The notes below the pieces were generated by a model, which made no database searches, was not told the DNA's origin, and saw only the letters and a list, made by a program, of their open reading frames with translations. DNA of 49,590 nucleotides from assembly GCA_964388535.1 (NCBI GenBank), contig CAYMBA010000001.1, forward strand, positions 15,602 to 65,191. The letters are read 5' to 3'. This DNA is from an uncultured bacterium (GTDB lineage: Bacteria; Eisenbacteria; RBG-16-71-46; CAIMUX01; WJJG01). The translations under genes and the position numbers were made by a program. This document shows, piece after piece, positions 27,867 to 49,590 of this stretch (position 1 is the first letter of the stretch; every line of letters starts with the position of its first letter).

Positions 27867-27979
27867 GTGTGGAGAGGCCCATGGGATCCTGATAGGCTCG
27901 CGAGCATGAGGTCTGTGACGAGGCGTCGCCGCATTGCCGGCTTCCTCGGGGTCTCTCGATGCTCGGCAGCTTCGACCAA

Positions 27980-30943
27980 ATGAAACTTCTGCTCAGTGTA
28001 GCGATCGCGCTCCTTGCAGCCTTTGTTCATCCGAGCACTGCGCAGCAGACCGCTGGCGGTTCTACCGCGACAGGGACGGTCATAGGCATGGTCAAAGACG
28101 CAGAGACCGGTGAACCCCTCTCGCCCGCCAGCATACTGCTTCTTGGGACCCGCATCGGGGCGGCCACGCTCAAAGACGGTCGTTTCACCATCAAGAGCGT
28201 GCCGGCGGGAAGGGACACCTTCGAAGCAGTCTTCCAGGGCTATGCTCCCCAGCAGCAGGTCGCCGAGGTGCAAGCCGGGAAGACCGTCTTCCTGGAATTC
28301 ACCCTCCGCCGGACGATAGTGGGCACCTTCGTTGCCCCGACGGCTCACGGCACGCGCCCCGTGATCGACGTCAAGAAGACCTCCACCATCCACAGCTTCG
28401 ACTCGAAGGAAATAGAGCAGATGCTCACCCAGTCGCCCACGCTCGAGGACATAGTCGAGCAGCAGCCAGGTGTCGTCAAAGAGCGTGGCAAGCTGCACTT
28501 CAGGGGCGGACGAGCCGACGAGAGCCTCTTCGTCATAGACGGTGTGAAGGTGCGCGACCTGCTCTCCGGCGAGACGGCCGAGAACGCAATCGCCGCCCGC
28601 AGCGCCCAGCAGGTGAGCGTCATAACGGGCGGATTCAGCGCCCGTTACAGCCAGGCGATGTCGGGCGTCGTGGAAACCCGCATCAAGGAAGGCTCCTCAC
28701 ACTGGCATGGAGCGCTCAGCTATGACAGCGACATCCTTTTCGACACCCAGAACCTCCACCAGGTCTACGCGGAGCTGAGCGGCCCCAACGTGCCTCTGGC
28801 CTCCCTGCTCCGCCTCCTCGGGGGCAACTCCCCCAGGGTGACCTTCTTCAGCAGCCTCAGTGCCGACTTCACGAACACAAAGCGGCCGAGCGTGAAGGAC
28901 GTCCCCGGATCATCGGGCCTCCGCTCATCGGTCGAAGATCGCTTTCTCGGAATCCGCTTTCATTATGGCACGGACATGTACCCGTGCGCCCAGAACCGCT
29001 GGAGGGCCATCTTCAAGACTGCGTGGCATGTGAGCCCCTCGAGTAAGATCTCGCTTTCCTGGACGAAGACGATTTCCTTCTCCCAGGACTGGGGGAGCCC
29101 GGACATAGGCCAGATCGATCGGAACACCGACCGCTATCCGTGGGCCTGGGCGAAGCGCATGGACCACCACTACACGGTGACGAAGGACGTCAACATAGCG
29201 AGCATCAGCTGGGAGAAAACCCTCGGCGAGAAGACGATGACCGCACTCCGGCTCTGGCGGCACTACTCCGGCAGCCACAAGGACGTGCGCGGAATGCGCT
29301 GGGACGACCCCGACTACGACCGCCTGAACGATTCCCAGCGTAGCGAGATCGACTCCTCGTTCGTGGACACACCCTATTTCATCGACTCCGGCGACGCCCC
29401 CGACTGGAGAGACCGCTACGTCGTCGTCTGGGGCGCCAGCAACGAGTGGCACTACAAGGCCGGCGCCCACGACTTGCAGGCCGGGCTCTCTGCCGAGTAC
29501 CACGACGTGCAGTTCATCTCGATAAACGCGCGCAATGTCAGCCCTGCCACCCCTCTTGGCGACGAGTTCGATCTCTTCCACGTCACCCCGAATGCCGGCA
29601 ATCTCTACGTCCAGGACCACTTCGAATACCAGGGGCTCGTTGGAAAGCTGGGACTCGTCTACGACTACTGGTTCCCGGGGGCACAGATCGAGCGCGTGAT
29701 GAAGCAGGAGCCCTCTGACGAGGACAACCTTCCGCCACACCTGACCGAGGAGCTGCGCGAGAAGTTCTTCCGCGAAACGAAGTCCCTCTTCGGCCACAGG
29801 TTCCAACAGCAGCTAAGCCCGCGGCTGGGTATCTCCTTCCCCGTAAGTCGCAGGGCACACCTGTTCTTCGACTACGGCCACTACTACCAGCGCCCTCCCT
29901 ACTACTACATCTACACGAAGTGCGCTTCCCGTTCGGGCGAGAACTATCCGCGCATAGGAAACCCGACGCTCAAACCGAAGGTCTCCGTCACCTACGAGGT
30001 TGGCGCCGGGTATCAGTTCACGTCGTCCACCGCTCTTCGGGCAACGATATTCTGGAAAGACTTGTACAACTACCCGCAGACGATCACGTTGCAGCTGAGG
30101 GAGCGGCAGGGCGCGAGAAGCAACTTCTTCATGTACTGGAACAAGGACTATGCACGCTCCAGGGGCCTCGAGATCGAACTGCGGCGCAAGCGCAGCAACT
30201 ACCTCTCAGGATCGATCTCCTACTCGTACTCGGTCGCCAAAGGCAAGAGCTCCGATCCCAACAAGACGAAGCTCATTCAGGAGAGCGGCGGCGACTCTCG
30301 CGAGACGAGTCTCGGGGAGGAATACCTCTGGTGGAACCGGCCCCACAAGCTGACGGCCAGGTTCACATTCCTGGTGAGGAGGGATGAAAGGCCGCCCCGG
30401 TGGTTCGGTATTGCGTGGCCGAAGGACTTCTCCTTCACGATCTACTACAAGATCCGCTCTGGCAGGCCTTATACACCGATGACGCCTGATGGTCTGATGG
30501 CCGGCGAAGCGTATTCGGCCAACGGTCCCTACGACGCCACATGCAATATTTCAATCAGCAAGGGCTTCAAGACAGGGAGAAACCGCATTCGGATCTCATT
30601 GAACGTATACAATGTCTTTGACTACCGCACCCCCCTCGTCTTCGACTGGGCAACCGGAGAACCGTACGAGGTGGGGAAGGGATCGCTCACCGATCCGAGG
30701 GACGACCCTTCGACATACGAATCCAGACTCGAGGAGGATCTCAACCGAAGGCTCTCATCGTACGAGCGATGGTTCCGCGCGACCTATCACCGCGATCCCA
30801 CGCCCGAGGAGACCGACAAGTACGCAAAGGAGATAGCAAAGGGCACGGCCGCAGCGACGACCGCGGGATACTACAGCCGCAGCAATCCGGGGTATTTCGC
30901 CTCCGGCAGGAGCTTCAGGCTTGGTGTGAGCTACGAATGGTGA
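27980..30943 (+). CDS. TonB-dependent receptor with N-terminal carboxypeptidase-regulatory-like domain
   Basis: Signal peptide, G-x-VKDAETGEPL, plug motifs RGGRADE...IDGV and TGGFSARY, LSPRLG, GNPTLKP, C-terminal beta-strand ending in W. Confidence 0.92.
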   Translation: MKLLLSVAIALLAAFVHPSTAQQTAGGSTATGTVIGMVKDAETGEPLSPASILLLGTRIGAATLKDGRFTIKSVPAGRDTFEAVFQGYAPQQQVAEVQAGKTVFLEFTLRRTIVGTFVAPTAHGTRPVIDVKKTSTIHSFDSKEIEQMLTQSPTLEDIVEQQPGVVKERGKLHFRGGRADESLFVIDGVKVRDLLSGETAENAIAARSAQQVSVITGGFSARYSQAMSGVVETRIKEGSSHWHGALSYDSDILFDTQNLHQVYAELSGPNVPLASLLRLLGGNSPRVTFFSSLSADFTNTKRPSVKDVPGSSGLRSSVEDRFLGIRFHYGTDMYPCAQNRWRAIFKTAWHVSPSSKISLSWTKTISFSQDWGSPDIGQIDRNTDRYPWAWAKRMDHHYTVTKDVNIASISWEKTLGEKTMTALRLWRHYSGSHKDVRGMRWDDPDYDRLNDSQRSEIDSSFVDTPYFIDSGDAPDWRDRYVVVWGASNEWHYKAGAHDLQAGLSAEYHDVQFISINARNVSPATPLGDEFDLFHVTPNAGNLYVQDHFEYQGLVGKLGLVYDYWFPGAQIERVMKQEPSDEDNLPPHLTEELREKFFRETKSLFGHRFQQQLSPRLGISFPVSRRAHLFFDYGHYYQRPPYYYIYTKCASRSGENYPRIGNPTLKPKVSVTYEVGAGYQFTSSTALRATIFWKDLYNYPQTITLQLRERQGARSNFFMYWNKDYARSRGLEIELRRKRSNYLSGSISYSYSVAKGKSSDPNKTKLIQESGGDSRETSLGEEYLWWNRPHKLTARFTFLVRRDERPPRWFGIAWPKDFSFTIYYKIRSGRPYTPMTPDGLMAGEAYSANGPYDATCNISISKGFKTGRNRIRISLNVYNVFDYRTPLVFDWATGEPYEVGKGSLTDPRDDPSTYESRLEEDLNRRLSSYERWFRATYHRDPTPEETDKYAKEIAKGTAAATTAGYYSRSNPGYFASGRSFRLGVSYEW

Positions 30944-36868: not shown

Positions 36869-38845
36869 ATGAAGGCGCGTCTTTTGGTTCTTATCGGTCT
36901 TCTGTCGCTCGCAGCAGCCACTGCTTCGGCAGAAGTCACCACTATCTTCGACATCCAGCTGGGTAGCTTCAATGAAGGCGATGAGGTAACCGTCCAGAAC
37001 GTGGTTGTCACCGCAAGCGGGCGTTTCGGGTTCTTCATCCAGGAGATAGAGCCTCATCCCACCTGGCAGAGGATGTACTCGGGAATCTGGGTTTTCACGA
37101 ACGGGTCCCACCTGGGTCAGATCCACAGGGGTGACGTCGTCGACGTGACGGGTATCTATGAGGAGTACTACGACTTCTCGGAGATCGATGTCTATCACTC
37201 CCCCTGCGGTGAGGATGTTGAGTGCGGGTTCGAGATCGTAGGCAGCGCCGAGGTGCCCGATCCCGTGCCGATGCTCATCAGCGAGGTCAACGACACCGGC
37301 GAATACAACGAGGCCTACGAGTCGGTGCTGATCCGCGTTGACCGCGAGGACAGCACCCTGTATGCCGGCGAGCCCAATCAGTACGACGAGTGGTACATCT
37401 ACACAGACGGCGTGGGCGCAGGAGATGCCCTCCTGGTCGACAGCTACTCCGCCGATCCCGAGGGAGACTTCGACTACCCGCTTCCATCGGAAGGCGACGA
37501 GTTCAGCTTCCTGGCCGGCATCCTCGTGTACAACTACGGCAGCTACAAGCTGGCCCCACGCAACTGCGTCGACGACATGGGAACCACGTGTCCTCCCGAG
37601 TTGCGGGGCATGTGGGCGTACGACAACACCAGGATCGATGTTCTCTTCGCTGTCCCGGTCGACGAGGCGAGCGCTGAGAATACGGACAACTACTACTTCG
37701 AGTCGGGTCTCGAGGTGCTCGCAGCGGAGCGGGATGAAAGCAATCACAGGATTGTGCACCTCACGACCGAAGAACAGACACCGGGGTACATCGATATAGG
37801 CTACGTCGAGGGCGTCCTCTCCGAAGACGATCTCGTGGAAATGCCGCCTGGCCAGTTCAGCTTCACCCAGGGCATAACACCCATCTACGACATCCAGCAC
37901 GTGGACGACCCGGTCCAGGACGACTCGCCGTATCTGGATGCGGTCGTTACGATCACAGGAAGGGTCACTTGTGTCGACGGCAACTACTACTTCCTGCAGG
38001 AAGGCGATGCTGGTCCGTACAAGCACATCTATGGACGGGTGGCGCGCACGGGTGATCTGGCGATTGGAGACAGTGTGAAGATCGCCGGCAAGGTGAGGGA
38101 GTACTACGGCGCGACATACGTCGGCTTCACACCGGGCGTGGTCCTCTATGAGAACCTCGGCCCTGCCACGGACCCCGTGATCGTGACCGACGTCTCGGCG
38201 AGCGAAATCCTCTATGACGCCGACGCCGGGGACGACAATCCCCCGGACGACAACGCGCCCGAGCCCTGGGAGGATGCTCTCATCCGGCTGAACGCGGAAG
38301 CCGTCATAGACAGCGTCGAAGGTGAGGCCGAGCTCTACGGGGAGTGGTGGCTGCTGGTCGATCCGGACACCTGCCGCGTAGACCTCAAGCACAGATTGAA
38401 CGAGGGCGGTGAAAACATCAGCTACGATCCCACACCGGGCGACACCCTCATGGTGAGCGGCATCCTCCGGTATGAATACGGGATCTACAAGATCGTGCCT
38501 CGCTTCGATGACGACATCGTGGTCCTCTCGCAGAGCGGTGTGGAAGAGACTGCCGACGGGCTGCACCTGAGGCTGTGGCAGACCGGGTCGAACCCATTCG
38601 GCTCGGCCACGACGGTCGCCTTCACCCTGAGTGAGCCGGCTGCAAGAGTGAGCCTCGGTATCTATGACGTGACGGGCAAGAAGGTGGCAACTCTCTTCGA
38701 GCGCAGCGGCGTTGCTGCCGGGACCTACATGGCGAACTGGAACGGCCGCGATGGATCAGGCGCAGCACTTGCCTCCGGCGTCTACTACTGCCGCCTGGAG
38801 GCGGACGGCAAGACCGCTACGAAGGAGATGATACTCGTCAAATAG
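36869..38845 (+). CDS. Secreted acidic protein: two OB-fold modules, Ig-like linker and T9SS/FlgD-like C-terminal domain
   Basis: Signal peptide; repeated I(F/Y)DIQ...F(I/L)QE...GD-x-V-x-(V/I)-x-G...EYY...(Y/W)E...IR...GIL-x-Y-x-YG-x-YK-x-x-PR; C-terminal NPF...IYDVTGKKV...WNG...ASGVYY...KEMILVK. Confidence 0.8.
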   Translation: MKARLLVLIGLLSLAAATASAEVTTIFDIQLGSFNEGDEVTVQNVVVTASGRFGFFIQEIEPHPTWQRMYSGIWVFTNGSHLGQIHRGDVVDVTGIYEEYYDFSEIDVYHSPCGEDVECGFEIVGSAEVPDPVPMLISEVNDTGEYNEAYESVLIRVDREDSTLYAGEPNQYDEWYIYTDGVGAGDALLVDSYSADPEGDFDYPLPSEGDEFSFLAGILVYNYGSYKLAPRNCVDDMGTTCPPELRGMWAYDNTRIDVLFAVPVDEASAENTDNYYFESGLEVLAAERDESNHRIVHLTTEEQTPGYIDIGYVEGVLSEDDLVEMPPGQFSFTQGITPIYDIQHVDDPVQDDSPYLDAVVTITGRVTCVDGNYYFLQEGDAGPYKHIYGRVARTGDLAIGDSVKIAGKVREYYGATYVGFTPGVVLYENLGPATDPVIVTDVSASEILYDADAGDDNPPDDNAPEPWEDALIRLNAEAVIDSVEGEAELYGEWWLLVDPDTCRVDLKHRLNEGGENISYDPTPGDTLMVSGILRYEYGIYKIVPRFDDDIVVLSQSGVEETADGLHLRLWQTGSNPFGSATTVAFTLSEPAARVSLGIYDVTGKKVATLFERSGVAAGTYMANWNGRDGSGAALASGVYYCRLEADGKTATKEMILVK

Positions 38846-38943: not shown

Positions 38944-41475
38944 TCAACTCGTATGAACAGCCGCACCGGAGCGATCGCGAAGCCCGAACTTGTCTAACAA
39001 TCTATAGGCGTGAGGGCGGCTGATCCCAAGAACTCGCGCTGCGGCACCGACACTACCCCGACACACCCGAAGTGCCAACTCCATCTCCGCGGGCTTCACA
39101 GGTCCCTCCGAACCGCGACGTCGAGCCGTACCTCCTCTGCCAGCGACAACGAGGAACTTGGCCAGCGCAACTTCAAGGCCATGGCGCTTCCACCAGGAGA
39201 CAGCCCGGCCCACCTCAAAAAGAAGCTCCCTAACGTTCCCTGGCCATTCACGCAGCGATATGAGGTCGACAATGTCACGAGATATGAAAGCCCCGGAGGA
39301 AGAGGGCTCTCCCCCACTCTTCTCCCAGAGATGCTGGATAAGCAGATCGAGGTCACATATCCGCTCCCTGAGAGAAGGGAGACGAATCGTCGCCCCGGCC
39401 AACCTATGGTACAAGTCTTCCCTGAAACGGCCCTCGCGCACGAAACCTTCCAAGTCCCGATTGGTTGCTGCCACAACACGTACATCCACCCGCTTTGCCT
39501 TCACTGAACCCAGGCGCTTCACCTCCCCCTTGTCGAGGAACCTCAGCAACAACCCCTGCTCTTTCTCACCGAGGTCGGCGATCTCATCAAGGAAGATCGT
39601 GCCCCCGTCTGCTGCTTCCAGACATCCCTTCCGATCTTGCTTGGCATCGGTGAAAGCCCCCTTCCTGACCCCGTGCAGCTCCGCCGCAAATACTGGGCCC
39701 CGCGCCGAGGCACAATTGATGGACAAGAAAAGGCCATGCCGACGGCTCAGCAGGTGCAGGCCCTCCGCGATCAACTCCTTGCCCGCCCCCGAGGGACCCA
39801 ATACCAGCACTGGAATTCTCTCCTCTGCCACCTCCTCGACCTCACGAAGGGCCGCCAGCGCGTCCGGATCTCTTGTCCTAAACCCGAGCCGCCACCAGAC
39901 ATCCGCGGGGGTCCACAGTCGTGCAAGCCGCGTCTCACGAGCGAAGCCTACACGCACGTCCACCAACTGCTCCAAACCAGTGGAGGCCGCGGAAGCCTCG
40001 GGTGATGCTCCAGGATAAGGCGACAAGAAACGGGCTGCGGCGCCTTCCCCAACCCGCTCCTCCAACCATCCCAACGGTCCCACAGCCGGGTTTTCAACCC
40101 AGAACACAAGGGCTTCTGACGCATGACTGCCACGAGTCCACTTCCGGGGCGGATCGTCCACTCCCACGCCTGAGCAGCAGGCGTACTCCAAGGATTCCTT
40201 CCACGCACACACAAGTGCCCGCTCGAGAACTTCACCGACCTCCTCAAGGCAGGAGCTGGCCTCCTGGAATCTTCGGTACGCCTCTGGGCAACGTCCCAAG
40301 TGAGCCAGTGCCGTTCCGGCGACCCGAAGCAGACTGCCTACCTCCCACGTCAACCCCAAGCGTTCTGCCCTCTCGAGCGCCGCAGTAGCCACCCCTAGAG
40401 CGTCCGTGTAGCGTTCTTCCAAGACCAACAGGGTGGCATCCTTCAGAGCCACTTCAATGCTGAGGTCGGCGTGAGACTCCAAGACGCCCCCGAAGTCACG
40501 CCTCATTGTCTCCAGAACCTCTCGCGCTTCCCGAGAACGCCCGTCCAAGATCAATGCCTCCACTAGGTACTCCAGGGCGGTTGCCTCCTCAAGTGACAGA
40601 CCGAGGCCCCTAAGCAAGCGGACAGCCTCCCGCAGCTTGGCGATCCCGGACTCCGGATCACCAGCCCTCGACTCTGCCCACCCGAGGCCCATCAACGCCT
40701 TGGCAACCGTCGTGTCGGACACGCTAGCAAAGCTGCCTCGGACACCCTCGAATGCTTCGATCGCACCCTTCAAGTGGCCAGATGCAGCCAGATGAAAGCC
40801 CCGACTTAGGGCGACTCTTGAAGCACTGGTGAAGTCACCCACTTGCCTGTACAAAGCTTCGGCCTCTGACAGAGCAGCCCACGCAATGGCCATGCTGCGA
40901 GTGCCTAGCGCCGCCATAGCCAGAGCCACGGAAGCGTCTGCTCTCAACGCAAGCAAACCCAGGGCCCTTGCTCTCTCTGCCATTCGGGCAGCGAGAGGCT
41001 TCGCATCCTCGGCACTGCCCTGACGCACCAAACACTTGACGGCTGCTAGCCCCGAGAATATCGCAACCCAGTCATCGCCTGTGCCCAGGCCGTCAAAGCC
41101 GGCATCACGCAACAGCGTCAGGCCCTCCCCCGGATCTCCGTCTTCAGCCAACCACGAAGCCAGAACGGATGCCCTCAGTAGTGAGTCCCTCGGGCTCAAC
41201 CCCTCCGGATCTTCCTCACGTAGCCTGGACACAACATCTCTCGCAGCTGCGGGACCAACCAAGTGAGCCGTGGCCACGCCCAGCAGGCACAGTCCCTGCA
41301 AGCGGTCCGATCGCCCCCATAGCGCCATACTGTCTACTTCCGCCTCCAGTACACGTTTCACCTCTTCCCAGGCCCCCAACTCAGCGTAAGCCCACGCCTC
41401 CACTATAGACCCAGATGCCAGCTCGCGTTGCCGGACCCCAGTGGGCTCCACAGGCCTTTTCCGTACCTTCGCCAT
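38944..41475 (-). CDS. Sigma54-dependent transcriptional activator (bEBP) with large N-terminal TPR-like domain
   Basis: Walker A GPSGAGKE, INCA, GAFTDA, Walker B IFLDEI, ATNRDL, FREDLYHRL, WPGNVREL, Fis-type HTH AARVLGISR. About 430 aa of helical repeats at the N-terminus; no receiver domain. Confidence 0.92.
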   Translation of the reverse strand: MAKVRKRPVEPTGVRQRELASGSIVEAWAYAELGAWEEVKRVLEAEVDSMALWGRSDRLQGLCLLGVATAHLVGPAAARDVVSRLREEDPEGLSPRDSLLRASVLASWLAEDGDPGEGLTLLRDAGFDGLGTGDDWVAIFSGLAAVKCLVRQGSAEDAKPLAARMAERARALGLLALRADASVALAMAALGTRSMAIAWAALSEAEALYRQVGDFTSASRVALSRGFHLAASGHLKGAIEAFEGVRGSFASVSDTTVAKALMGLGWAESRAGDPESGIAKLREAVRLLRGLGLSLEEATALEYLVEALILDGRSREAREVLETMRRDFGGVLESHADLSIEVALKDATLLVLEERYTDALGVATAALERAERLGLTWEVGSLLRVAGTALAHLGRCPEAYRRFQEASSCLEEVGEVLERALVCAWKESLEYACCSGVGVDDPPRKWTRGSHASEALVFWVENPAVGPLGWLEERVGEGAAARFLSPYPGASPEASAASTGLEQLVDVRVGFARETRLARLWTPADVWWRLGFRTRDPDALAALREVEEVAEERIPVLVLGPSGAGKELIAEGLHLLSRRHGLFLSINCASARGPVFAAELHGVRKGAFTDAKQDRKGCLEAADGGTIFLDEIADLGEKEQGLLLRFLDKGEVKRLGSVKAKRVDVRVVAATNRDLEGFVREGRFREDLYHRLAGATIRLPSLRERICDLDLLIQHLWEKSGGEPSSSGAFISRDIVDLISLREWPGNVRELLFEVGRAVSWWKRHGLEVALAKFLVVAGRGGTARRRGSEGPVKPAEMELALRVCRGSVGAAARVLGISRPHAYRLLDKFGLRDRSGAAVHTS

Positions 41476-41541
41476 TCCACAACCTCCGCTGCAGCGTTCT
41501 CTCTCACCAAACCAAGTCCTGTTGCACCGACACGCCGGGTT

Positions 41542-41820
41542 CTACTCACCGGTCTTTTCACAGTGCTCCAATCTCGGCAGCTGCCGGGCTCCAGCATCTT
41601 CTCTCAAACCCTTCGTGCACCTCCAACTTCGCCACAGAACGTTCTGGACGCCCCCATCAACCCCGTTCCTGTAAGGGAAGTCGTCCGGGATTCGAATCTC
41701 CGCCATTGCTGGCTTCCTCTGTGCAAAGGCAAGGGCGTCACCCGGCAGCACCGCCAGAAGGCCAAGCGCCCCTATGATTCCCAGTGCTAAACTCAGCAAC
41801 CTTCCTAGGTCTCTCTGCAT
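41542..41820 (-). CDS. Small putative secreted protein (92 aa)
   Basis: MQRDLGRLLSLALGIIGALGLLAVLPGDALAFA signal-like N-terminus; G-rich RBS; fills the gap between two co-oriented genes. Confidence 0.5.
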   Translation of the reverse strand: MQRDLGRLLSLALGIIGALGLLAVLPGDALAFAQRKPAMAEIRIPDDFPYRNGVDGGVQNVLWRSWRCTKGLREDAGARQLPRLEHCEKTGE

Positions 41821-41851
41821 TTGCCCACCCCCATTGACTTCGGTCCAATCC

Positions 41852-43111
41852 CTACCGTGGATATTCTCCAATCTCCGCAAGCCTATATGCCGCTACTGCA
41901 ACAGGGCCCTCGTAGCGTGTTGACGCAGGGTCTTCGATCCCTGCAAGGGATCCCTTTGCCGCGTCAAAGCCCTCTAGCACGACCAGGATACTCTCCGCAG
42001 GCTGAACGACCTCGTCAAACATGGGGTCAACCCGCCCTAGCAATACCGCCTGCCATAGAAACCGTCCGTCAACCGAAAGCACATCAAGCACGCCTGCCAC
42101 GGAATCTGGCAATCCAAACCACCCAGAACTGGAACCGACCCAAATCCGCTCCCCAAACACTGCCAAGGTATAAACATCCGGTCGGTACTCCGAGACCCGA
42201 GCTTCCACCGTGCCTTCGAACTCCCGCATCAGATTCGCACGCGCAACCTCCATCTCCAGCTCCGTCCTCCGCACATGTTCATGCTCGATTCGGATAACTC
42301 GCTCAGTTCCCCCTCCGAACGAGTAAACATCAATGCGGTACTCTAGGTGTTGAGGGCAGAAGAACACCTGCTTCCCTGCCGCGTCCACGAGGGGTCTTAG
42401 CCCATCTCTTACCTCATCTCGCCGTATGGCCCCCCGGACGAATACGAATTCATTGCTCCAGTGCTCGGCGACTAGTCTCCCAGTCCAATCAAAACTCCTG
42501 CAGAAATGACCAGCGGAAATCCTTACGTTGTTTCCTTCTCGCCTCCATCGGGCGTACCAACCAATTCCTACAACGCCGTCGTCGGTACTGGCGCACCCAG
42601 CTAGCCCCATCATCTCTTGGCTCCCGCTTTCCAGTGTCACGGTCCGACCCGGCGACCCGTCCAGCGGGACTATGGCAACTGAAGCACGTCCGAAGACGAT
42701 TCCGATCGAATCCGAAGACGCCCAAAACAAGTCGAGAGGTTCGCGGAACTCCCCAGGTCCTTCTCCACCGTGGCCCAAACGGCCAACAAGGTTCCCGCGA
42801 CGGTCGAGCACGTGGACACAATCATACGCGTAATCAAGAAGGTAGTATCTCCCCGCGGAATCGACGAGAACGTCCTGGACTAGCCCAAAGGGAACTTCTC
42901 CACCCGAGTCGGGCCATTCCCAGCGCCACGCCGGCAGCAAGCGGTAATAACGACGGCTAGGTTCTCGAGGAGGTGTAACGTAGACGTACTCGACACTGTC
43001 AGCTCCCTTGCTTCGCGCCGTCCGGCCGCTCTGATCTGGCGGTCCGCAAGCGAGAGACAGGAGCAATGGCAAAGCCAGTAGGTCGAGCAGCCTCCACCGC
43101 AACAGGATCAC
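41852..43111 (-). CDS. 6-bladed beta-propeller lipoprotein (NHL/TolB-like)
   Basis: Lipobox SLAC, DVLVDSAGRYYLLD, GHGGEGPGEF, repeated D-x-x-G turns. Start either GTG 43111 or TTG 43189. Confidence 0.8.
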   Translation of the reverse strand: MILLRWRLLDLLALPLLLSLACGPPDQSGRTARSKGADSVEYVYVTPPREPSRRYYRLLPAWRWEWPDSGGEVPFGLVQDVLVDSAGRYYLLDYAYDCVHVLDRRGNLVGRLGHGGEGPGEFREPLDLFWASSDSIGIVFGRASVAIVPLDGSPGRTVTLESGSQEMMGLAGCASTDDGVVGIGWYARWRREGNNVRISAGHFCRSFDWTGRLVAEHWSNEFVFVRGAIRRDEVRDGLRPLVDAAGKQVFFCPQHLEYRIDVYSFGGGTERVIRIEHEHVRRTELEMEVARANLMREFEGTVEARVSEYRPDVYTLAVFGERIWVGSSSGWFGLPDSVAGVLDVLSVDGRFLWQAVLLGRVDPMFDEVVQPAESILVVLEGFDAAKGSLAGIEDPASTRYEGPVAVAAYRLAEIGEYPR

Positions 43112-43234
43112 GGGACAGCCCGGAGCACCAGGATTGAGTAGCTTCCCCACGAGCCGTCTCCGAGGGTGGCGCAGACCTTTGGTCCGCAAACAGGGATTGG
43201 CTGCGATCCATGTACCGCTTCCGCGTCGACTGTA

Positions 43235-43263
43235 AATCTACCGCCCGTGCACGAACGTGTCAA
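43235..43263 (-). promoter_or_regulatory. Sigma70 promoter for the propeller / small protein / bEBP operon
   Basis: Minus strand TTGACA, 17-nt spacer, TAGATT. Confidence 0.65.
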
Positions 43264-43555
43264 GACCTGACTCGCTAGCTGAGGAGCTTTGGGCCCTCCG
43301 GTCGCGGCCTTTGGTTGGCCAGCTCAAGCCTGGAGCAGACGCCCATCATTTCCGCATCTCACACGTGATCCCACCCTAGTGTCTCCCCGAAGATCGCCGG
43401 GCCTTCGAAGAGACATCACTCGTGCGCATTCCTGCCGCTTCTATCGGAAACCCAACACCCGAGAGCACCGCCGAGCTGACACAGAGTGTTGGAAAAGCCT
43501 CATATTCCAAGAGGACAACGCATTCGTCCGCTCCGCTCTGCCCGACTCCCGAGGC

Positions 43556-43572
43556 TTGGCACAGTTCTTGCA
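43556..43572 (+). promoter_or_regulatory. Sigma54 (-24/-12) promoter
   Basis: TTGGCACAGTTCTTGCA has exact GG-N10-GC spacing and matches TGGCAC-N5-TTGCW; 65 nt upstream of the peptide ATG; a bEBP gene lies in the same locus. Confidence 0.88.
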
Positions 43573-43636
43573 ATTGCCGCCATACGGACTCAGTACGATT
43601 CAGGATCCACCCACTAACCTCAAGGAGGTAGTCGTC

Positions 43637-43921
43637 ATGGCAAAGTTTTCGCGATCACTTTTCGTAAGGTTGCTCCCAGCGGTGCTAGCCTTCTCTGTTC
43701 TGACAGGGACCGTGCTCTTTGCGCATCCGCCCAAGGCCAGCGCAGCCCAGCAGGTCGTCGTTATCTTCAAACCCTGCTGCCAGGCCACCTGTGAGGGCGG
43801 AAGCTGCACCTGCTTCGGGGCGCCCTGTGAATGTTCTTGCGTATTGGGAATGCCCCGATGCATCTGCGGGGGAAGCTTGTACATCTCAGAGAACATTGAC
43901 TGGTGCGCACCCTCTCGGTAG
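43637..43921 (+). CDS. Secreted cysteine-rich peptide precursor (94 aa, 11 Cys)
   Basis: RBS AAGGAGGT (43622-43629); Sec signal ending ASA; mature part AQQVVVIFKPCCQATCEGGSCTCFGAPCECSCVLGMPRCICGGSLYISENIDWCAPSR. Confidence 0.88.
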   Translation: MAKFSRSLFVRLLPAVLAFSVLTGTVLFAHPPKASAAQQVVVIFKPCCQATCEGGSCTCFGAPCECSCVLGMPRCICGGSLYISENIDWCAPSR

Positions 43922-43923
43922 GC

Positions 43924-43958
43924 GGAGTCGGGAGAGGGCAACGCCCCTCTCCCGCTCC
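43924..43958 (+). other. GC-rich RNA hairpin directly after the peptide gene, no U-tract
   Basis: CGGGAGAGGG-caacgc-CCCTCTCCCG, extended by GGAG/CTCC. Confidence 0.65.
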
Positions 43959-43990
43959 CCCACATCCCTCTGTGAGGAGGAAGTAGCACA

Positions 43991-45178
43991 ATGCTGCGGG
44001 GCGTCGCACGCCTATCTCGCATTGTTCTTATCTACCGCCGCAAGTTCGTACGACCCCATGGCTGGCGCACAGTCTGGTGCTTCCTAGTGAGCGCTCTTCT
44101 AAGCGCTGCCTTCGCCGCAGAGACATTCAGCACTGCCCCACAGCATAGCGACCACCAAGTTCCACTCGAAGTACTCCACGTCCCTGCTGCCGGAATCATT
44201 GATCTCGCCCCAATTGGCGGACAGGTCGTCTCAGCAGCGCTTTCGCCTGAATGCTTGTCACTGTACCTTCTTGACCGTTCCGCCTCTCGCTTACTGTCCA
44301 TTCCCCTTCACCACGGCGGACCTTCTGGTGAAGTAGAAACCATCGCTCACCTCCAGTGCGAGAATCCTACTTGCGTCGCTGTTGGGAGCTCCGGGCGCGT
44401 CTACGTCGCAGATCCCGGACGCCAACTGGTCTTGGTGATTGACCCCGCGAGTGGCCGCGTCGGCACAGTTCCTGCTCCTGGCCTGGCCGGCCCAGCCAGG
44501 CGGATAGACGTGTTGGGCGATACGCTGTTTGTACCCGCCCATCCGGCCACAGACGCGACGCTGGTGAGGTACTATGTAGGCTCCGATTTGCACCCCGTCA
44601 GAATAGATAGCCTCCTCCTCGAGCCAAGCGAAATACCAGGGTTGATGCTATCAGTAAGGGCCACTCTTACCCGCGCGTGTGTGACGCGTCTTGCCTATGG
44701 GGGGAGGAACGTCTTGGCGGTAGCGCTCCAAGCGGTTCCGCGAGTCTACATAGTAGATGAAAACGAAAACGAACTATGGGGTTTCACACTGAGGACCCCC
44801 GAAATACGGCGCGTGCGGAGTCACTTTCACAGGCTCCGATCCCTTGACACCCCAGGCTGGGCAAGGCGGTGCTCGATGCAGTTCGAATGGGACGAGATTA
44901 TCGAAGATATGATCGCGGCTAGCACGCCTACAACGACATCTCTAGCTGTGTATGTAATGGGAATGGTAACATCCCACAAACACCTCTTCCTTCTCATGGA
45001 CGGGGTTCTCTCAGAGCTCACACCCCGCGGAAAGCTTGTGCGCCGGTTTGTTCCGGTCAGCCCCGACGGGGACACACTGACGTTGCATGGAATTGCGCAG
45101 GGCTGTGGGGGCCTGTGCGCGGGAGTAGCTCGGCACGAGAACTGTGCTGTCGTGTTCTCGCTCCCAGACCCGAGGTGA
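43991..45178 (+). CDS. Exported beta-propeller (NHL/SMP-30-like) protein
   Basis: RBS GAGGAGG; hydrophobic signal segment; LYLLD, PTCVAVGSSGRVYVADPG, IDVLGDTLFV blades. Confidence 0.7.
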   Translation: MLRGVARLSRIVLIYRRKFVRPHGWRTVWCFLVSALLSAAFAAETFSTAPQHSDHQVPLEVLHVPAAGIIDLAPIGGQVVSAALSPECLSLYLLDRSASRLLSIPLHHGGPSGEVETIAHLQCENPTCVAVGSSGRVYVADPGRQLVLVIDPASGRVGTVPAPGLAGPARRIDVLGDTLFVPAHPATDATLVRYYVGSDLHPVRIDSLLLEPSEIPGLMLSVRATLTRACVTRLAYGGRNVLAVALQAVPRVYIVDENENELWGFTLRTPEIRRVRSHFHRLRSLDTPGWARRCSMQFEWDEIIEDMIAASTPTTTSLAVYVMGMVTSHKHLFLLMDGVLSELTPRGKLVRRFVPVSPDGDTLTLHGIAQGCGGLCAGVARHENCAVVFSLPDPR

Positions 45179-45309: not shown

Positions 45310-45455
45310 TCCAACAGTCAGTTCGAAGGACGTGGCACTCCATATACGCCAATACATGTCGTGCTTCTGGACTGGCTTGCATGTTGCTCAGCCTCACCCG
45401 GATTGCAGTCGACGGTGAGGAATGCGATCGCCCGACGAAGGGGCGGTGTCCACAG

Positions 45456-46862
45456 ATGATCGGCTACCTGGCAGCCCGCGAGATCCGCTCTCTGGTCCTC
45501 TCCTGGAGGGCCATCGTCCTGGTTGCGGGGATGATCCTGCTGGCGGTGGCAGTGACTCTTTCTTCCAGTGCACGCTATTCCGACGCCACCCTCTCTGCCC
45601 GTGCATCGACCCGCCAGCACGCAACCTGGCTGCGCAAGGCACGCGCCTACATCGAGATGATCCCGGCTATCGAAGTCGAACCCAACCCGCTGCAAGGACT
45701 CTCGGGCAGCGGATACAGGCCCCTGGCCACTACGGTCGTCATCCCGGGCTGGTACGCCCCAGTTTCTCTAATCTCGGGCCGGGAGGCCACCAACCCCTTT
45801 CTCGATGCACTCGCCGATCTGGACCTGGCCCGGGTGATCAGTCTTCTGGCAACGCTGCTCGTCGTCTTCCTCGGGTTCGATGCGATCACGGGGCCCAGGG
45901 AACGGGGGGTGTTGAAGTCCGTAATGGCCCTTGGAGCCACCCCCAGGCAGATCCTGCTCTCGAAGTACCTGGCATGCGCGGTCGTAGCCGGCATCGCAGC
46001 AGCGGTGGCGCACCTGGTCTGGTACGTCGGCATGCTCCTGGCAGGGCACTCCGAGCTCGCCTCGGCCCCTGCCATTGGGGCCGTGGTGGCCCACCTGGTC
46101 CTCTCTCTCTTGCTCGTTTCGGTCTTCGCCGCAGGCACGATCGCTGTCTCCTCGCTTAGCAGCAGTTCCGGCCAGTCGCTGCTCACCCTCATTCTCCTGT
46201 GGATGCTGGCTGCGGCGGTCGCCCCTGACCTCACATCGCAGGTCGCCCGGTTGCTCAGACCCGACCCGCCCCCGCAGGCAGCCGCCGCCGGAACGTTCAC
46301 CCCTGGGCGTGTTCCGGGCGAAACGGCCGAACCGCCGACATCCGAGTACGCAGCCATGAGCGTCTGCATGCTGCCGCCGCTCAGGGACTACGGTGACGAG
46401 TTCGTAGCCGGCTTGTACGACGAACAGCGGATCAACAGGCTGCTCGAGCAGTGCACGCTGAACTATCTCCTTGGGTTGATCAGCCCCGTGGGCTGTTTCC
46501 TGGCGTCATCGGCAAAGATCACGGGCCTGGATCCGATCGCACACGTGGCGCTCCTTAGAGAGTGCCTTCACTACCAGCAGACACTGAAGGAGTGGCAGGA
46601 AAGCAAGGTTCGCGCGGCTCCGCACAGAAGCAGGGTCGTCATCTCCTCCGACCCACCGCTGGATACGCGGGGCTTTCCTTTCATCTCCAGGGGGCGGGTG
46701 CTGGAGCGGGACCTCACGGAAGCAGGTCTCTCGGGAATCCGCATGCCGTGGCTCGGTCTGGCCGCCCTCCTGCTGTGGAACCTCGCCATGCTGGCGCTGC
46801 TGCTGGCTCCCGCAGTGCGGCCGGGAATCGGCGGAGCCGTACACATCCTGAGGAGCAGCTGA
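45456..46862 (+). CDS. ABC-2 type transporter permease subunit
   Basis: N-terminal AAREIR, periplasmic loop, LGFDAITGPRERGVLK, ILLSKY, SSGQSLL, ISP motif, C-terminal TM. Confidence 0.85.
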   Translation: MIGYLAAREIRSLVLSWRAIVLVAGMILLAVAVTLSSSARYSDATLSARASTRQHATWLRKARAYIEMIPAIEVEPNPLQGLSGSGYRPLATTVVIPGWYAPVSLISGREATNPFLDALADLDLARVISLLATLLVVFLGFDAITGPRERGVLKSVMALGATPRQILLSKYLACAVVAGIAAAVAHLVWYVGMLLAGHSELASAPAIGAVVAHLVLSLLLVSVFAAGTIAVSSLSSSSGQSLLTLILLWMLAAAVAPDLTSQVARLLRPDPPPQAAAAGTFTPGRVPGETAEPPTSEYAAMSVCMLPPLRDYGDEFVAGLYDEQRINRLLEQCTLNYLLGLISPVGCFLASSAKITGLDPIAHVALLRECLHYQQTLKEWQESKVRAAPHRSRVVISSDPPLDTRGFPFISRGRVLERDLTEAGLSGIRMPWLGLAALLLWNLAMLALLLAPAVRPGIGGAVHILRSS

Positions 46863-48307
46863 TGATCCTCTGGGTCGCTCGAAATACCGTGCTCAGAATC
46901 GCCCGGTCCCGCAGCCTCGTCATACTCGTCCTGCTCTGGCTCGCGCTCATGGTCCTAGGCGGTGCCCTCTCGGGCACGGAGCGGCTGCGGGCACTGGAAG
47001 AGAAGTCCTCCATATCCGCCAGGGCGGCACAGGAAAACCCCTTCGAGAGTACCATGGCATGCTCGGATCCGCCGGCGCTCTTCCATGTGACACAGTCCTG
47101 GCTGCCCGGACTCTCCCAGTGCCTGCGCTTGAGCCCCAGTAGTGTGGAGTACGCGGACCCGGTCACGAGGAGGCGATCCCTGCTCGCGAGGGTGAACGGC
47201 CTGGACTGGGTGTTCGTCTTCGCCGTGCTGGGAGGGATCATCGCGATCTGCCTCTCCTTCGATGCCTGCAACGGGGAGATCTCCAGCAGGAACCTGCGCT
47301 TGATGCTCACCAGCGGCCTGAGGCGCTGGGAGTTCCTCGCCGGTCGCTTCGCCGGGACGATGGCCGTACTCTGCACATCTTCCCTGGCGGGGGCGATCGC
47401 CTCGAGTGGGGCGTACTTCGGTGTGGCCGGAATCTCCCCTGCCCCATCTCACCTCTGGCGCCTGGGTGCGGCCCTGCTCCTTGGATGGGCATGCCTCGCC
47501 TTGGCGGTGGGCCTCGGGCTCTTCTTCTCGAGTGCACTGCGCCGCCCCGCCGCATCGCTGGCTGCAGGGCTCCTCGTGTGGATCATCGCTTCGATAGCGG
47601 TCCCCGAAGCAGCCCCCAGCCTGGCGCCGGCACTGCGTCCAATCGTCTCGCTGCGCAAGTTCCAGAGGATGATCTCGAGCCAGGCTTCCGCGGCGGCCGT
47701 GTCTTTCCAGTCGGAGCGCGAGGGGGCCGCTCTGAGGGAGATAGTGGAGCGCGAGATCCCGGACTGGATGAAGGCGAAGGAGGTGGAAGCGCTCGGCAGG
47801 CGTTTCAGCGCCGAGCAGGAAGAGAAGCGCTGGGAGAGGGAAATCGAGATCCGCAGGTTGAGGCGCCGCTACGACCGCCGGCGCCGCGACCAGGTGGCGA
47901 TGGCGACGTCACTGGCGCTCGCTTCGCCCTCGGGGCTCATGCGGTGGGCGCTCGAGCGCCTCTGCGACGCAGGGTGGGCCAGATACGCACGCTTCATAGA
48001 GGCCGTCGAGGCCTACCAGGAGCCCTACTCCCGATACGTCCGCAGTAAGACGCTCGAGAACCTGGATAAGGCATCTTTCCGCAACTCGGTCTCCAGTTGG
48101 TACAAGGGCTACGAGCTCGTGATCCAGACCGAACCATACCTGCCGCGGGGAGCAGTCGACGCGAGCGACATGCCGCTCTTCGAGCTGCAGCCGATCGAGG
48201 TCTCCGACTCCGCCGCTGCATGGGTGCTGGGAACCGCAGCCCTGCTGCTGCCCTCTCTCATCCTGCTCGTTGCAGGCTACATCATGCTGGCCCGGAGGGA
48301 TGTCTGA
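46862..48307 (+). CDS. ABC-2 type transporter permease subunit (paralog)
   Basis: TGATG coupling, LDWVFV, SFDACNGE, LAGRF, GLFFSS, ASP, C-terminal RRDV. Confidence 0.85.
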   Translation: MILWVARNTVLRIARSRSLVILVLLWLALMVLGGALSGTERLRALEEKSSISARAAQENPFESTMACSDPPALFHVTQSWLPGLSQCLRLSPSSVEYADPVTRRRSLLARVNGLDWVFVFAVLGGIIAICLSFDACNGEISSRNLRLMLTSGLRRWEFLAGRFAGTMAVLCTSSLAGAIASSGAYFGVAGISPAPSHLWRLGAALLLGWACLALAVGLGLFFSSALRRPAASLAAGLLVWIIASIAVPEAAPSLAPALRPIVSLRKFQRMISSQASAAAVSFQSEREGAALREIVEREIPDWMKAKEVEALGRRFSAEQEEKRWEREIEIRRLRRRYDRRRRDQVAMATSLALASPSGLMRWALERLCDAGWARYARFIEAVEAYQEPYSRYVRSKTLENLDKASFRNSVSSWYKGYELVIQTEPYLPRGAVDASDMPLFELQPIEVSDSAAAWVLGTAALLLPSLILLVAGYIMLARRDV

Positions 48308-48319
48308 GGAGGCAAGGGA

Positions 48320-49590
48320 ATGAAAGAAAACCGGTCCCGCTTCTTCTGGATCGCGTGGCTTCTCCTGTGGCTGGCCCCGATCCATCCGGCGGCCTCGGAG
48401 TCCGCCGGGCAGGTGAGCAGGCTCGGCCTCACGGCAGAGGAAAACGTTTCCGCCTACCGCATCCGCGAGGCGCTGCTCAGACTCCGTGAGGCCAGAATGG
48501 ATTTCGAGACCGCCGAATCGCTCCACACCTGGGGACTCATATCCTCCAACGAACTCACCCGGCGGCGGATCCACTGGCGGGCCGAGTCACTCCGGGTCTC
48601 CTCGGTCGTACGTGCAGCCGTCGGCGAAGCGATCCGGATCATGGTCGCGGAAGCCGCCCGCTACCGCGCCGCCGACGGCGCCCTGCACGTTTCTCTGCTG
48701 CTGCGCGTGGCGAACGAGGGCCTCCCACCCGGGCTCGAGATTCCCCCCTACCTCTTCGCAGGCGGTCTTCACCGCTGCGAGGTCCTCTACGTTTCCCTTC
48801 TCCATGGCGGAGCCATCGTGGGCCAGCCCTACGAGATGCGCTGCAGAATGCCGCGGGCGGGCCAGTCGATACGGCTCGACTTCCGCCTGCTGGAAGAGAC
48901 CGACCGCGTGGTGGTGCGGATGGATCACTGCGGAGCGACTGAAGAGAAGAACATCATCCTCACCGAGCTCGGCACTACGGGCGGTGGCGTCAAGATCAGG
49001 TGCAACCTGATATCCCAGGAGGTGCCCCTGGGCGAGACGGCCCACTTCCCGATAACGATCGAGCATCCCATCGGCACCGAACACTCAGTCAGGCTCGAGG
49101 TCTCAGGGCTGCCCCGTGAGATGCGCTGCGGCTTCATCGACCCGGCCAAGGGCGCGCGCCTGACGAGCCTGCTGCTTCCGGCCACGGAAAGGGAGTATCC
49201 GGTCGACCTCCAGGTCTCGGCACCCGAGCGGGTGAGCCGGGAGGTCGTCCCTGGAGAAGCCCTGGCCTTCCTTGTCAGGATCCGGGCGGAGGAGAGTTCC
49301 ACAGCCGGTGCACCCTCGGGCGGGGCGGTCCTCGACTCGCTTCAGCTGGAGGTGATCCCCAGGGGCCGCGGCGAGCTCAGTGTCCGCTGCGCCAATCTCT
49401 ACGTCACCGCTGCGAAGGGGAAAACCACCTCCACGAAGATCATGGTCTCCAACACAGGCACCGGAGCCGTGCAGAACATACAGGTCACACTCGAGGGCCC
49501 CTTGGGATGGGAACTGGGCACGGAACCCGCAGCTCTCTTCGATCTGCCCCCGGGCGGGTCACGCGAACTGGAGGCACTGTTTGCAGCACC
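48320..49590 (+). CDS. Exported NEW3 (NPCBM-associated) Ig-domain protein, truncated by window end and absent from the ORF track
   Basis: My translation from ATG 48320 stays open to the end: MKENRSRFFWIAWLLLWLAPIHPAAS..., helical FETAESLHTWGLISSNEL, ...VSNTGTGAVQNIQVTLEGPLGWELGTEP...DLPPGGSRE. RBS GAGGAGG. Confidence 0.8.
   Translation, partial: MKENRSRFFWIAWLLLWLAPIHPAASESAGQVSRLGLTAEENVSAYRIREALLRLREARMDFETAESLHTWGLISSNELTRRRIHWRAESLRVSSVVRAAVGEAIRIMVAEAARYRAADGALHVSLLLRVANEGLPPGLEIPPYLFAGGLHRCEVLYVSLLHGGAIVGQPYEMRCRMPRAGQSIRLDFRLLEETDRVVVRMDHCGATEEKNIILTELGTTGGGVKIRCNLISQEVPLGETAHFPITIEHPIGTEHSVRLEVSGLPREMRCGFIDPAKGARLTSLLLPATEREYPVDLQVSAPERVSREVVPGEALAFLVRIRAEESSTAGAPSGGAVLDSLQLEVIPRGRGELSVRCANLYVTAAKGKTTSTKIMVSNTGTGAVQNIQVTLEGPLGWELGTEPAALFDLPPGGSRELEALFAA

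Follow-up and report, generated by a model that had tools for sequence, protein, structure and literature searches.

An undescribed family of small Cys-rich domains, predicted to be exported and encoded beside NHL/DUF5128-type propellers in an uncultured bacterium and its relatives

The window analysed here is a stretch of 49,590 nucleotides (nt) from the genome of an uncultured bacterium of the Eisenbacteria (GenBank assembly GCA_964388535.1, contig CAYMBA010000001.1, positions 15,602 to 65,191; genome G000 below), with a GC content of ~61%. It contains P0001, a genuine gene for a small exported Cys-rich protein of 94 amino acids (aa), which by its sequence relationships belongs to an undescribed family of Cys-rich domains with the core CC-x3-C-x4-C-x6-CxCxC-x6/7-C. 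The strongest clue to the role of this domain, missed in the first-pass annotation of the window, is its obligate link to NHL/DUF5128-type propellers, including a protein encoded outside the window (P0002) in which the two are fused. As the Cys module always lies beside propellers or is fused to them, it is probably a partner subunit and not a free toxin or a metal sponge. We propose, with a probability of about 0.5, that two propellers form an extracytoplasmic module, controlled by sigma-54 in G000, in which the exported disulfide mini-domain serves as their small partner. Exported disulfide-rich mini-domains are of a known kind; what is new here is their conserved genomic partnership with propellers.

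The Cys-rich domain family

A phmmer search of 1.84 billion representative sequences with P0001 (E-value <=1e-3) reported six proteins, namely P0001 itself and the distant homologues P0005-P0009 (E-values 1.7e-6 to 7e-4). All six are unnamed singleton clusters. With six clusters in a set of this size, the domain is very rare. The five homologues keep the core pattern given above, plus a Gly and a Pro; the first-pass annotation had let its reading hinge on the existence of homologues that conserve the Cys spacing, and these do conserve it. P0007 (77 aa) consists of a signal peptide and the domain, while P0005, P0006, P0008 and P0009 are Asn/Lys-rich proteins of 149-182 aa, in which a lipobox-like LTSC, FTSC or FVAC is followed by the domain and then by an extra region of ~90 residues. 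The profile hidden Markov model (HMM) built from the five distant homologues alone was run against 54,888 six-frame open reading frames (ORFs) of G000 plus one contig (L028) of a related genome, G004, and identified the P0001 ORF as its sole significant match (E-value 3.7e-13; next match: 0.25). In composition-preserving shuffles of P0001 against the five homologues, 0 of 2000 reached the real score (z 10.5-14).

The domain has no counterpart in Pfam, NCBIfam or the PDB, in agreement with the earlier statement that the family was not recognised. P0001 gave no match to Pfam (E-value <=0.01) or NCBIfam (E-value <=0.1), P0005-P0009 and P0010 gave no significant match to either, and the family profile gave 0 matches to the PDB (E-value <=10). 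Weak Pfam matches (E-value <=10) were each obtained with one of eight members (EGF_4: 0.006; Toxin_34: 0.23; hEGF: 0.29; Myticin: 0.49). They lend no sequence support to the "defensin/granulin-like" label of the first-pass annotation, and an assignment of P0001 to the EGF, granulin, defensin or knottin toxin families was rejected, as no match exceeded the curated threshold.

The set considered below comprises ten members: P0001, the C-terminal tail of P0002, P0005-P0009, and three small proteins from related genomes (P0010-P0012). Membership of the latter is partly by chains of similarity: P0012 is connected via P0010 (shuffle z 6.0), and P0010 via P0007 (5.6) and P0005 (4.2). In alignment A9 (10 members) C48, C64, C66 and C75 are invariant and C52, C57 and C68 are present in at least 90% of the sequences; in A10 (also 10 members) C64, C66 and C75 are invariant, with C48, C52 and C68 in at least 90%. 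Hydrophobic residues are conserved between the Cys residues, and there is neither a conserved His nor a conserved Trp.

A word-index protein search with P0001 returned only the query (1 candidate), as did that with P0002 (8000 scored candidates), and with alignment A2 its 1572 candidates included 4 proteins, none of them new. The single-sequence search of 41 relatives with P0001 (E-value <=1) matched 16 genomes; 12 of these weak matches were translated and proved, without exception, to be off-frame or Arg-rich noise. Pattern searches for contigs of the distant homologues yielded 19 (A4) and 178 (P0008) stretches among genome contigs and 101 (A6) among metagenome contigs, none of which was confirmed. 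A six-frame scan for Cys density was swamped by GC-rich off-frames.

Association with NHL/DUF5128-type propellers

By profile similarity, the partner proteins are NHL/DUF5128-type six-bladed propellers. In G000, P0001 lies upstream of P0003, a 395-aa protein with a signal peptide, and P0004 (445 aa), encoded on the opposite strand, is DUF5128-like and probably a lipoprotein. The NHL family was matched above its cut-off (20 bits) by P0003 (22.1) and by proteins of three related genomes, G004_358 (42.2), G015_393 (35.3) and G038_421 (23.0). The propeller profile (A7) matched the NHL domains of Pizza, TRIM71 and PknD in the PDB, with E-values from 9e-39 (Pizza7H) to 9e-12 (PknD). The blastp homologues of P0003 are P0002 (27% identity over 181 residues, E-value 1e-10), G004_358 (1e-9) and G015_393 (2e-5); those of P0004 are G038_383 (3e-6), G015_457 (3e-4) and the NHL blade of G004_358 (2e-8).

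P0002 (430 aa), a secreted propeller encoded downstream of the window as the last gene, after an ABC ATPase, carries the Cys module fused at its C-terminus: its last ~40 residues correspond to a P0001-type domain with 7 Cys. This tail was the one further match in the genome search with P0001 (E-value 0.0049); it shares 15 of 37 residues with the P0001 core (E-value 9e-5, shuffle z 6.8), and P0001 and P0002 are reciprocal best matches in the six-frame ORF set, with weak E-values of 0.069 and 0.38.

All-against-all blastp divided the propellers into two groups. Group A comprises P0003, P0002, G004_358, G015_393 and G038_421, with E-values from 3e-4 to 1e-39 for the reported pairs (E-value <=1e-3) and three pairs without a match (P0003-G038_421, P0002-G015_393 and one more). 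Group B comprises P0004, G015_457, G038_383 and G004_330; four of its six pairs match with E-values from 8e-4 to 3e-6, and G004_330 matches G038_383 only. A search of 40 relatives with P0003 revealed a single homologue, in G004 (E-value 1.4e-6). A profile of the C-terminal half of the group-A propellers (A8) detected five genes in 4 of 206 genomes of the phylum (two in G000 and one each in G004, G015 and G038), and the profile of the Cys domain (A10) found the domain in the same four genomes; three further A10 matches with E-values of 0.003-0.01 were off-frame noise.

The genes are clustered in each of these genomes. In G004, P0010 (75 aa, with a ribosome-binding site (RBS), a signal peptide and 10 Cys) lies downstream of the NHL/DUF5128 protein G004_358 and is followed by a second propeller-like gene. 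In G015, P0012 (79 aa, signal peptide, 12 Cys) overlaps the stop codon of the 393-aa propeller, and the 457-aa gene follows. In G038, P0011 (88 aa, 10 Cys) is the first gene of an operon that also encodes a DUF5128 protein (383 aa, E-value 1.2e-10) and an NHL protein (421 aa). Thus, all four loci contain one peptide gene, one group-A gene and one group-B gene, and all five group-A genes have a Cys module that is adjacent, within the same operon or fused. This offers a first functional handle on a set of orphan NHL/DUF5128-type propellers whose dedicated small partner is either encoded separately or fused to them.

Start and export signal of P0001

In the mechanical ORF listing the frame of P0001 begins at TTG 43289 and comprises 210 aa; the first-pass annotation placed the start at ATG 43637 instead. 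The RBS it had named, AAGGAGGT, is present 7 nt ahead of this ATG. The codon-position GC rises at the third position in 43637-43921 (0.51/0.56/0.68) and is flat in 43289-43636 (0.61/0.55/0.60), and the stand-alone homologues start at the position aligned with M1 of P0001. Placed within the long ORF, the sigma-54 promoter described below speaks against a start at 43289. As far as sequence analysis can show, the RBS, the position of the promoter, the codon-position GC, the homologue starts and the N-terminal pattern given next confirm ATG 43637 as the start, as well as the signal peptide and a mature chain of 58 aa.

Translation from ATG 43637 reproduces exactly the 11-Cys spacing described earlier, CC-x3-C-x4-CxC-x4-CxCxC-x6-CxC-x12-C (residues 47, 48, 52, 57, 59, 64, 66, 68, 75, 77 and 90). 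The N-terminus is basic (K3, R6, R11) and continues into a hydrophobic core (best 11-residue Kyte-Doolittle mean of 2.51, residues 12-22) and A-S-A at residues 34-36 (positions -3 to -1). This pattern of charge and hydropathy over residues 1-36 fits the previously predicted signal peptidase site and 58-aa mature peptide, and the predicted signal peptides or lipoboxes of the homologues are found in the same place. No other ORF of the genome combines a signal-peptide-like start and a CxCxC motif with a density of 8 or more Cys per 45 aa. Gene callers routinely miss or mis-start small exported Cys-rich proteins, as they did with P0001.

Promoter, regulation and composition of the locus

The sigma-54 promoter claimed in the first-pass annotation is a perfect -24/-12 element, TGGCACAGTTCTTGCA, the only perfect match to TGGCAC-N5-TTGCW in the window (0.05 expected; 5 of 100 shuffles contained at least one); if one mismatch is tolerated, the window contains 3 matches vs 1.19 expected. 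A divergent gene encodes an 843-aa sigma-54 enhancer-binding protein with a TPR region, an AAA+ domain and a Fis-type HTH (Pfam: Sigma54_activat, 2.8e-52; AAA_lid_14; HTH_8; TPR_12), and three Sigma54_DBD matches, all above the cut-off, show that the genome contains rpoN-type genes. An inverted repeat (TGTCTCCCCGAAG / CTTCGAAGAGACA) situated ~150 bp upstream of the -24 element is, by its position only, a candidate enhancer (upstream activating sequence) for this activator.

In G015, a TPR-containing sigma-54 activator of 1119 aa is encoded ~4 kb from the peptide/propeller module, and its AAA+ domain is 42% identical to that of the 843-aa activator (87/206 residues, E-value 2e-42). No convincing sigma-54 promoter was found at the G015 and G038 loci, and the site at the G004 locus, ~80 nt upstream of the gene for a 391-aa protein, has 2 mismatches and is within chance expectation. 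Sigma-54 control is therefore shown for G000 only.

The region 43915-43995, between P0001 and P0003, contains a GC-rich hairpin (dG, the folding free energy, -40.6 kcal/mol, z -4.42; 0 of 200 shuffles fold equally well). It lacks a T-run and was negative as an intrinsic terminator; it could possibly be an attenuator or an mRNA stabiliser. The GC content at third codon positions (GC3) is 0.60-0.68 in the genes for the activator, P0004, P0001 and P0003 and 0.76-0.81 in the ABC genes, P0002 and the other neighbours (P0003: 0.61 vs P0002: 0.78), so the former four genes are compositionally distinct. This block (38944..45178) may have been acquired horizontally, which would fit the patchy spread of the module, as its 4 genomes (of 206) fall into three families of the phylum.

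Table 1. Positions of the features discussed in the text (window coordinates unless a contig is named)
Feature	Position	Strand	Basis or remark
P0001 coding sequence, Cys-rich precursor, 94 aa + stop	43637..43921	+	translation, homologues, HMM
Stop codon of P0001	43919-43921	+	
RBS of P0001, AAGGAGGT	43622-43629	+	read in sequence
Sec-type signal peptide of P0001 (residues 1-36), predicted cleavage A-S-A / A	43637..43744	+	hydropathy and charge pattern
Conserved Cys-rich core of P0001 (residues 47-77), 10 Cys (8 family-wide and the C59/C77 pair)	43775..43867	+	alignments A9, A10
Non-conserved C-terminal tail of P0001, GGSLYISENIDWCAPSR, with the eleventh Cys, C90	43868..43918	+	C90 in P0001 alone
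Sigma-54 -24/-12 promoter, TGGCACAGTTCTTGCA	43557-43572	+	single perfect match in window
Inverted repeat, TGTCTCCCCGAAG / CTTCGAAGAGACA	43380..43415	.	arms of 13 nt, 85% complementary, with a 10-nt spacer
Sigma-70-like promoter candidate for P0004, TTGACA-17-TAGATT	43235..43263	-	consensus match; 1 site vs 0.5 expected from shuffles
GC-rich hairpin between P0001 and P0003	43918..43963	+	folding
P0003, group-A NHL-type six-bladed propeller, 395 aa	43991..45178	+	NHL above cut-off; RBS GAGGAGG upstream
P0004, group-B DUF5128-like propeller, 445 aa, probable lipoprotein	41852..43189	-	DUF5128 E-value 0.0037, below curated cut-off; LSLAC lipobox by eye
Sigma-54 enhancer-binding protein, 843 aa (N-terminal TPR region, AAA+, Fis-type HTH)	38944..41475	-	Pfam
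ABC-2 permease	45381..46862	+	not conserved with the module
ABC-2 permease	46562..48307	+	not conserved with the module
NEW3-domain protein, cut off by the window end	within 45381..49590	+	followed beyond the window by ABC ATPase, then P0002
P0002, secreted group-A propeller with C-terminal Cys domain, 430 aa	G000:C1:66352-67644 (L021 3353..4645)		~1.2 kb past window end, 7 kb downstream of P0001
Membrane-anchored 391-aa protein heading the G004 operon	L028 (G004:C236) 2806..3981	-	CPEC and CTTC by eye
G015 activator, 1119 aa, TPR and sigma-54 AAA+	L042 (G015:C55:95165-98524)		~4 kb from module
TonB-dependent receptor	27959..30943	+	
Further NHL-repeat protein, 342 aa	32004..33032	+	
658-aa nuclease-like protein	36869..38845	+	
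90-aa ORF of a second peptide-propeller pair	G000 C263:722..994	+	outside the window

The Cys pattern and predicted disulfides

The first-pass annotation left open two chemistries for P0001, disulfide-stapled hairpins or a metallothionein-like thiolate cluster; the former gained support, and the latter received no profile match. The mature parts contain 8 Cys each in P0005, P0006, P0008 and P0009, 10 each in P0007, P0010 and P0011, 12 in P0012, 11 in P0001 and 7 in the P0002 tail; the count is even in eight of ten members, the odd ones being P0001 and the P0002 tail. C59 and C77 occur together in three members (P0001, P0007 and the P0002 tail) and are both absent from the four lipoprotein-like ones, as would be expected for the gain of a fifth disulfide. 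All nine stand-alone members carry a predicted signal peptide or lipobox and are read as exported. The genome encodes a homologue of VKOR-type disulfide-forming enzymes (38.6 bits, above the cut-off). The neighbours at the four loci are propellers, the activator, parts of ABC systems, proteins with tails of the type IX secretion system (T9SS) and proteins without a family match; no cytoplasmic maturase family was found among those scanned. The few weak Pfam matches of the family are to disulfide families, none of them metallothioneins.

The even counts, the C59/C77 pairing, the export signals, VKOR and the lack of a maturase favour a putative knot of 4-5 disulfides over a thiolate cluster or a ribosomally synthesised and post-translationally modified peptide (RiPP). 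P0001 was rejected as a RiPP precursor, given no maturase among the scanned neighbours and a Sec-type signal in place of a leader. From the odd Cys count the first-pass annotation deduced one free thiol for dimerisation, partner attachment or metal binding; the odd Cys, C90, is found in no homologue and is hence not a feature of the family.

Proposed function and alternatives

We propose that sigma-54 together with the TPR activator switches on P0001 and P0003, and that P0001 is exported by Sec and cut after Ala36. In the oxidising envelope the 58-aa chain would fold with four family-wide disulfides and a fifth between C59 and C77, C90 being a lineage-specific extra. The resulting knot could dock on the group-A propeller P0003 in trans, as the C-terminal Cys tail of P0002 may do in cis, and the group-B lipoprotein (P0004) might tether the assembly, whose propellers could then serve in ligand capture, sensing or catalysis. 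If this partner model is true, the family would provide a compact new disulfide scaffold, and bacteria would have a parallel to those animal receptor ectodomains that join a propeller to a knot.

An extended version of this model appears possible but rather doubtful to us. According to it, a heteromeric pair of NHL/DUF5128 propellers would need a separately exported five-disulfide knot of ~50 residues as an obligate third subunit, forming the split counterpart of eukaryotic propeller-plus-Cys-knot receptor ectodomains under a TPR-sensing sigma-54 switch. P0001 with its 11 Cys and the P0002 tail with its 7, counts that are odd in this genome only, would each keep one Cys unpaired, which might allow covalent cross-linking of both systems.

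Several observations weigh against the partner model. As members of one phylum the four genomes are related to each other, and their own sequences are part of the profiles A8 and A10, so the co-occurrence is descriptive and not a statistical test. Gene order differs among the loci; the distant homologues include four lipoprotein-like proteins (of five) that have an extra domain of ~90 aa, and the pairing with propellers is known from the four loci of this phylum only. P0011 is weakly similar to the other members (shuffle z 1.7-3.8), the HMM of the distant homologues does not detect the P0002 tail or P0010, and P0010 is not among the six best phmmer matches of P0001; therefore the membership of the P0002 tail and P0010 rests on similarity chains and context. 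DsbB and Thioredoxin_4 (DsbA-like) were not found in the genome, which is 92% complete. The predicted complex of P0003 residues 44-395 (A7) with mature P0001 (A5) gave ipSAE values of 0.01/0.01 against a mark of 0.32, with an uncertain fold of the partner, and speaks neither for nor against binding. Finally, adjacency and one fusion suit an enzyme-substrate relation equally well as a subunit relation.

The last point leads to the alternative that the propellers are extracytoplasmic enzymes or chaperones and the exported Cys-rich peptide is their substrate, from which modification, folding or processing would yield a secreted product, for instance a signal or natural product. This alternative is in keeping with the tight operon linkage in all four genomes and with the hairpin 3' of the peptide gene, which resembles the attenuators between precursor and enzyme genes in peptide operons. 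Some NHL-type propellers are enzymes, and the profile A7 also matches the PAL domain of peptidylglycine amidating monooxygenase (E-value 8e-6); however, the single invariant column across the five propellers of A7 is P126, so no catalytic constellation stands out. Likewise, the G004 operon is headed by the membrane-anchored 391-aa protein, in which CPEC and CTTC each follow a hydrophobic strand-like stretch (by eye), but this protein matches no thioredoxin or other Pfam family (E-value <=5); with no homologue in G000 either, it was rejected as a thioredoxin. Since the Cys module of P0002 is permanently built into a propeller protein, and the domain of the four lipoprotein-like homologues resides in a larger protein, we regard a substrate role as not very likely.

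P0001 could also be a periplasmic metal-thiolate protein (metallothionein-like or a metallochaperone), which feeds or buffers Cu, Zn or Cd together with a NosY-like ABC-2 system. The family resembles metallothioneins (bacterial SmtA/BmtA and the eukaryotic ones) in its high density of CxC and CxCxC motifs with small residues between them; the neighbouring permeases match ABC2_membrane_2, the family of NosY; and, apart from the missing DsbB and DsbA-like families, the genome encodes many 4Fe-4S proteins, so that a low-oxygen life with reduced envelope thiols may be possible. Against this, no metallothionein family matched any of eight members at E-value <=10, the paired gain of Cys, the mostly even counts and the export signals of all stand-alone members are unlike metallothioneins, VKOR is present, and the family lacks a conserved His and conserves hydrophobic residues between its Cys. 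The ABC genes are also specific to this locus: a scan of 14 proteins encoded around the module in G004, G015 and G038 revealed no ABC-transporter family, so the ABC system is best seen as neighbouring context. Altogether, a metal-binding role seems improbable.

The same ABC genes invite the interpretation of P0001 as a Sec-dependent antimicrobial peptide (bacteriocin- or defensin-like), with the downstream two-permease, one-ATPase ABC-2 transporter conferring self-immunity. The product is small, exported, Cys-rich and preceded by an inducible promoter, the two permeases and the ATPase follow on the same strand in a layout that resembles LanFEG-type immunity, as in Sec-dependent class II bacteriocins with their signal-peptide precursors, and the Toxin_34 and Myticin matches point in the same direction. 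Nevertheless, we consider this unlikely. Among the neighbours scanned at the other three loci there was no ABC family and no identified immunity gene, the GC3 of the ABC genes is unlike that of the peptide/propeller/activator block, and a gap of 200 nt separates P0003 from the first permease. A domain that is fused to a propeller or placed inside lipoprotein-like proteins is ill-suited to a diffusible toxin, and the mature peptide, as read from the sequence, is not cationic. Should one of these alternatives be true, P0001 would be a secreted peptide product or else a periplasmic protein that binds metals, and new in either case. As to the ABC genes, the permease ORFs overlap by ~300 nt (46562..46862) in the mechanical listing, and the GTG start of the second is probably placed too far upstream.

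That P0001 is a non-functional, chance Cys-rich frame is very unlikely: high-GC genomes do yield many spurious Cys-/Arg-rich frames, but this one has an RBS, a promoter, a signal peptide, homologues from lineages of very different composition, a unique HMM match and a combination of signal start, Cys density and CxCxC that is unique in the genome. The 4 sequencing runs found for it are of DNA, and no RNA run was listed.

Comparison with known systems

In architecture, the closest systems that we can name are the propeller-plus-Cys-knot ectodomains of animal receptors and the small Cys-dense subunits of periplasmic amine dehydrogenases; both comparisons are analogies. Eukaryotic proteins that combine a propeller with a small Cys knot include the YWTD propeller-EGF proteins of the LDL-receptor family, the Sema-PSI proteins and teneurins (an NHL propeller with EGF repeats). 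P0002 shares with them a predicted extracytoplasmic six-bladed NHL-type propeller followed by a Cys-rich module of ~40 residues. Unlike them it is bacterial, has another Cys spacing and shows no sequence relation beyond the single-member EGF_4 and hEGF matches, and four of the five knots are encoded apart from the propeller, each with a signal peptide of its own.

Periplasmic quinoprotein amine dehydrogenases carry a small Cys-dense chain (the light subunit of methylamine dehydrogenase, the gamma subunit of QHNDH) on a propeller subunit and, as in the module described here, a small exported Cys-rich chain is encoded beside a propeller. These small subunits work only in complex with the propeller subunit, and the propellers are seven-bladed and not NHL. 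The small subunits contain Trp-derived cofactors and need MauG or radical-SAM/protease/flavoprotein maturases; by contrast, the P0001 family lacks a conserved Trp, and no such maturase families were found among the neighbours scanned.

Small NVEALA-type genes may lie beside DUF5128/NHL propellers in Bacteroidales; the NVEALA control gave no match in Bacteroides thetaiotaomicron. The module is similar in that its propellers match NHL and DUF5128 and a small ORF with a hydrophobic start lies beside them. However, NVEALA (PF14055) matched neither P0001 and P0012 (E-value <=0.01) nor P0005-P0009 (E-value <=1) nor the mature or core stretches of eight members (E-value <=10; P0011 was not scanned), and no match was found in this genome (E-value <=0.1), so the assignment of the family to NVEALA was rejected. 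In the literature library searched, there was no mention of NVEALA, of DUF5128 or of NHL-repeat proteins together with a gene cluster for a Cys-rich precursor peptide; a search on related subjects returned irrelevant plant biology.

Other observations

Outside the window, G000 contains a second peptide-propeller pair. An unrelated 90-aa ORF on contig C263, with the RBS AAGGAGGT, a signal peptide, a GC3 of 0.79 and a Cys-/Trp-rich end (...CWCWYCFDWDW), is followed by a 205-aa secreted protein and then by a DUF5128-like propeller running off the contig, which suggests that a small Cys-rich peptide with a six-bladed propeller is a general theme in this organism. Within the window, the further NHL-repeat protein matches the NHL blade region of G004_358 (E-value 4e-6), and the TonB-dependent receptor carries a CarboxypepD_reg domain. 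The 658-aa protein is similar to ExeM/NucH-like extracellular nucleases and ends in an FlgD_ig / T9SS-type C-terminal sorting domain; proteins with T9SS tails flank the module in G015 and G038 too.

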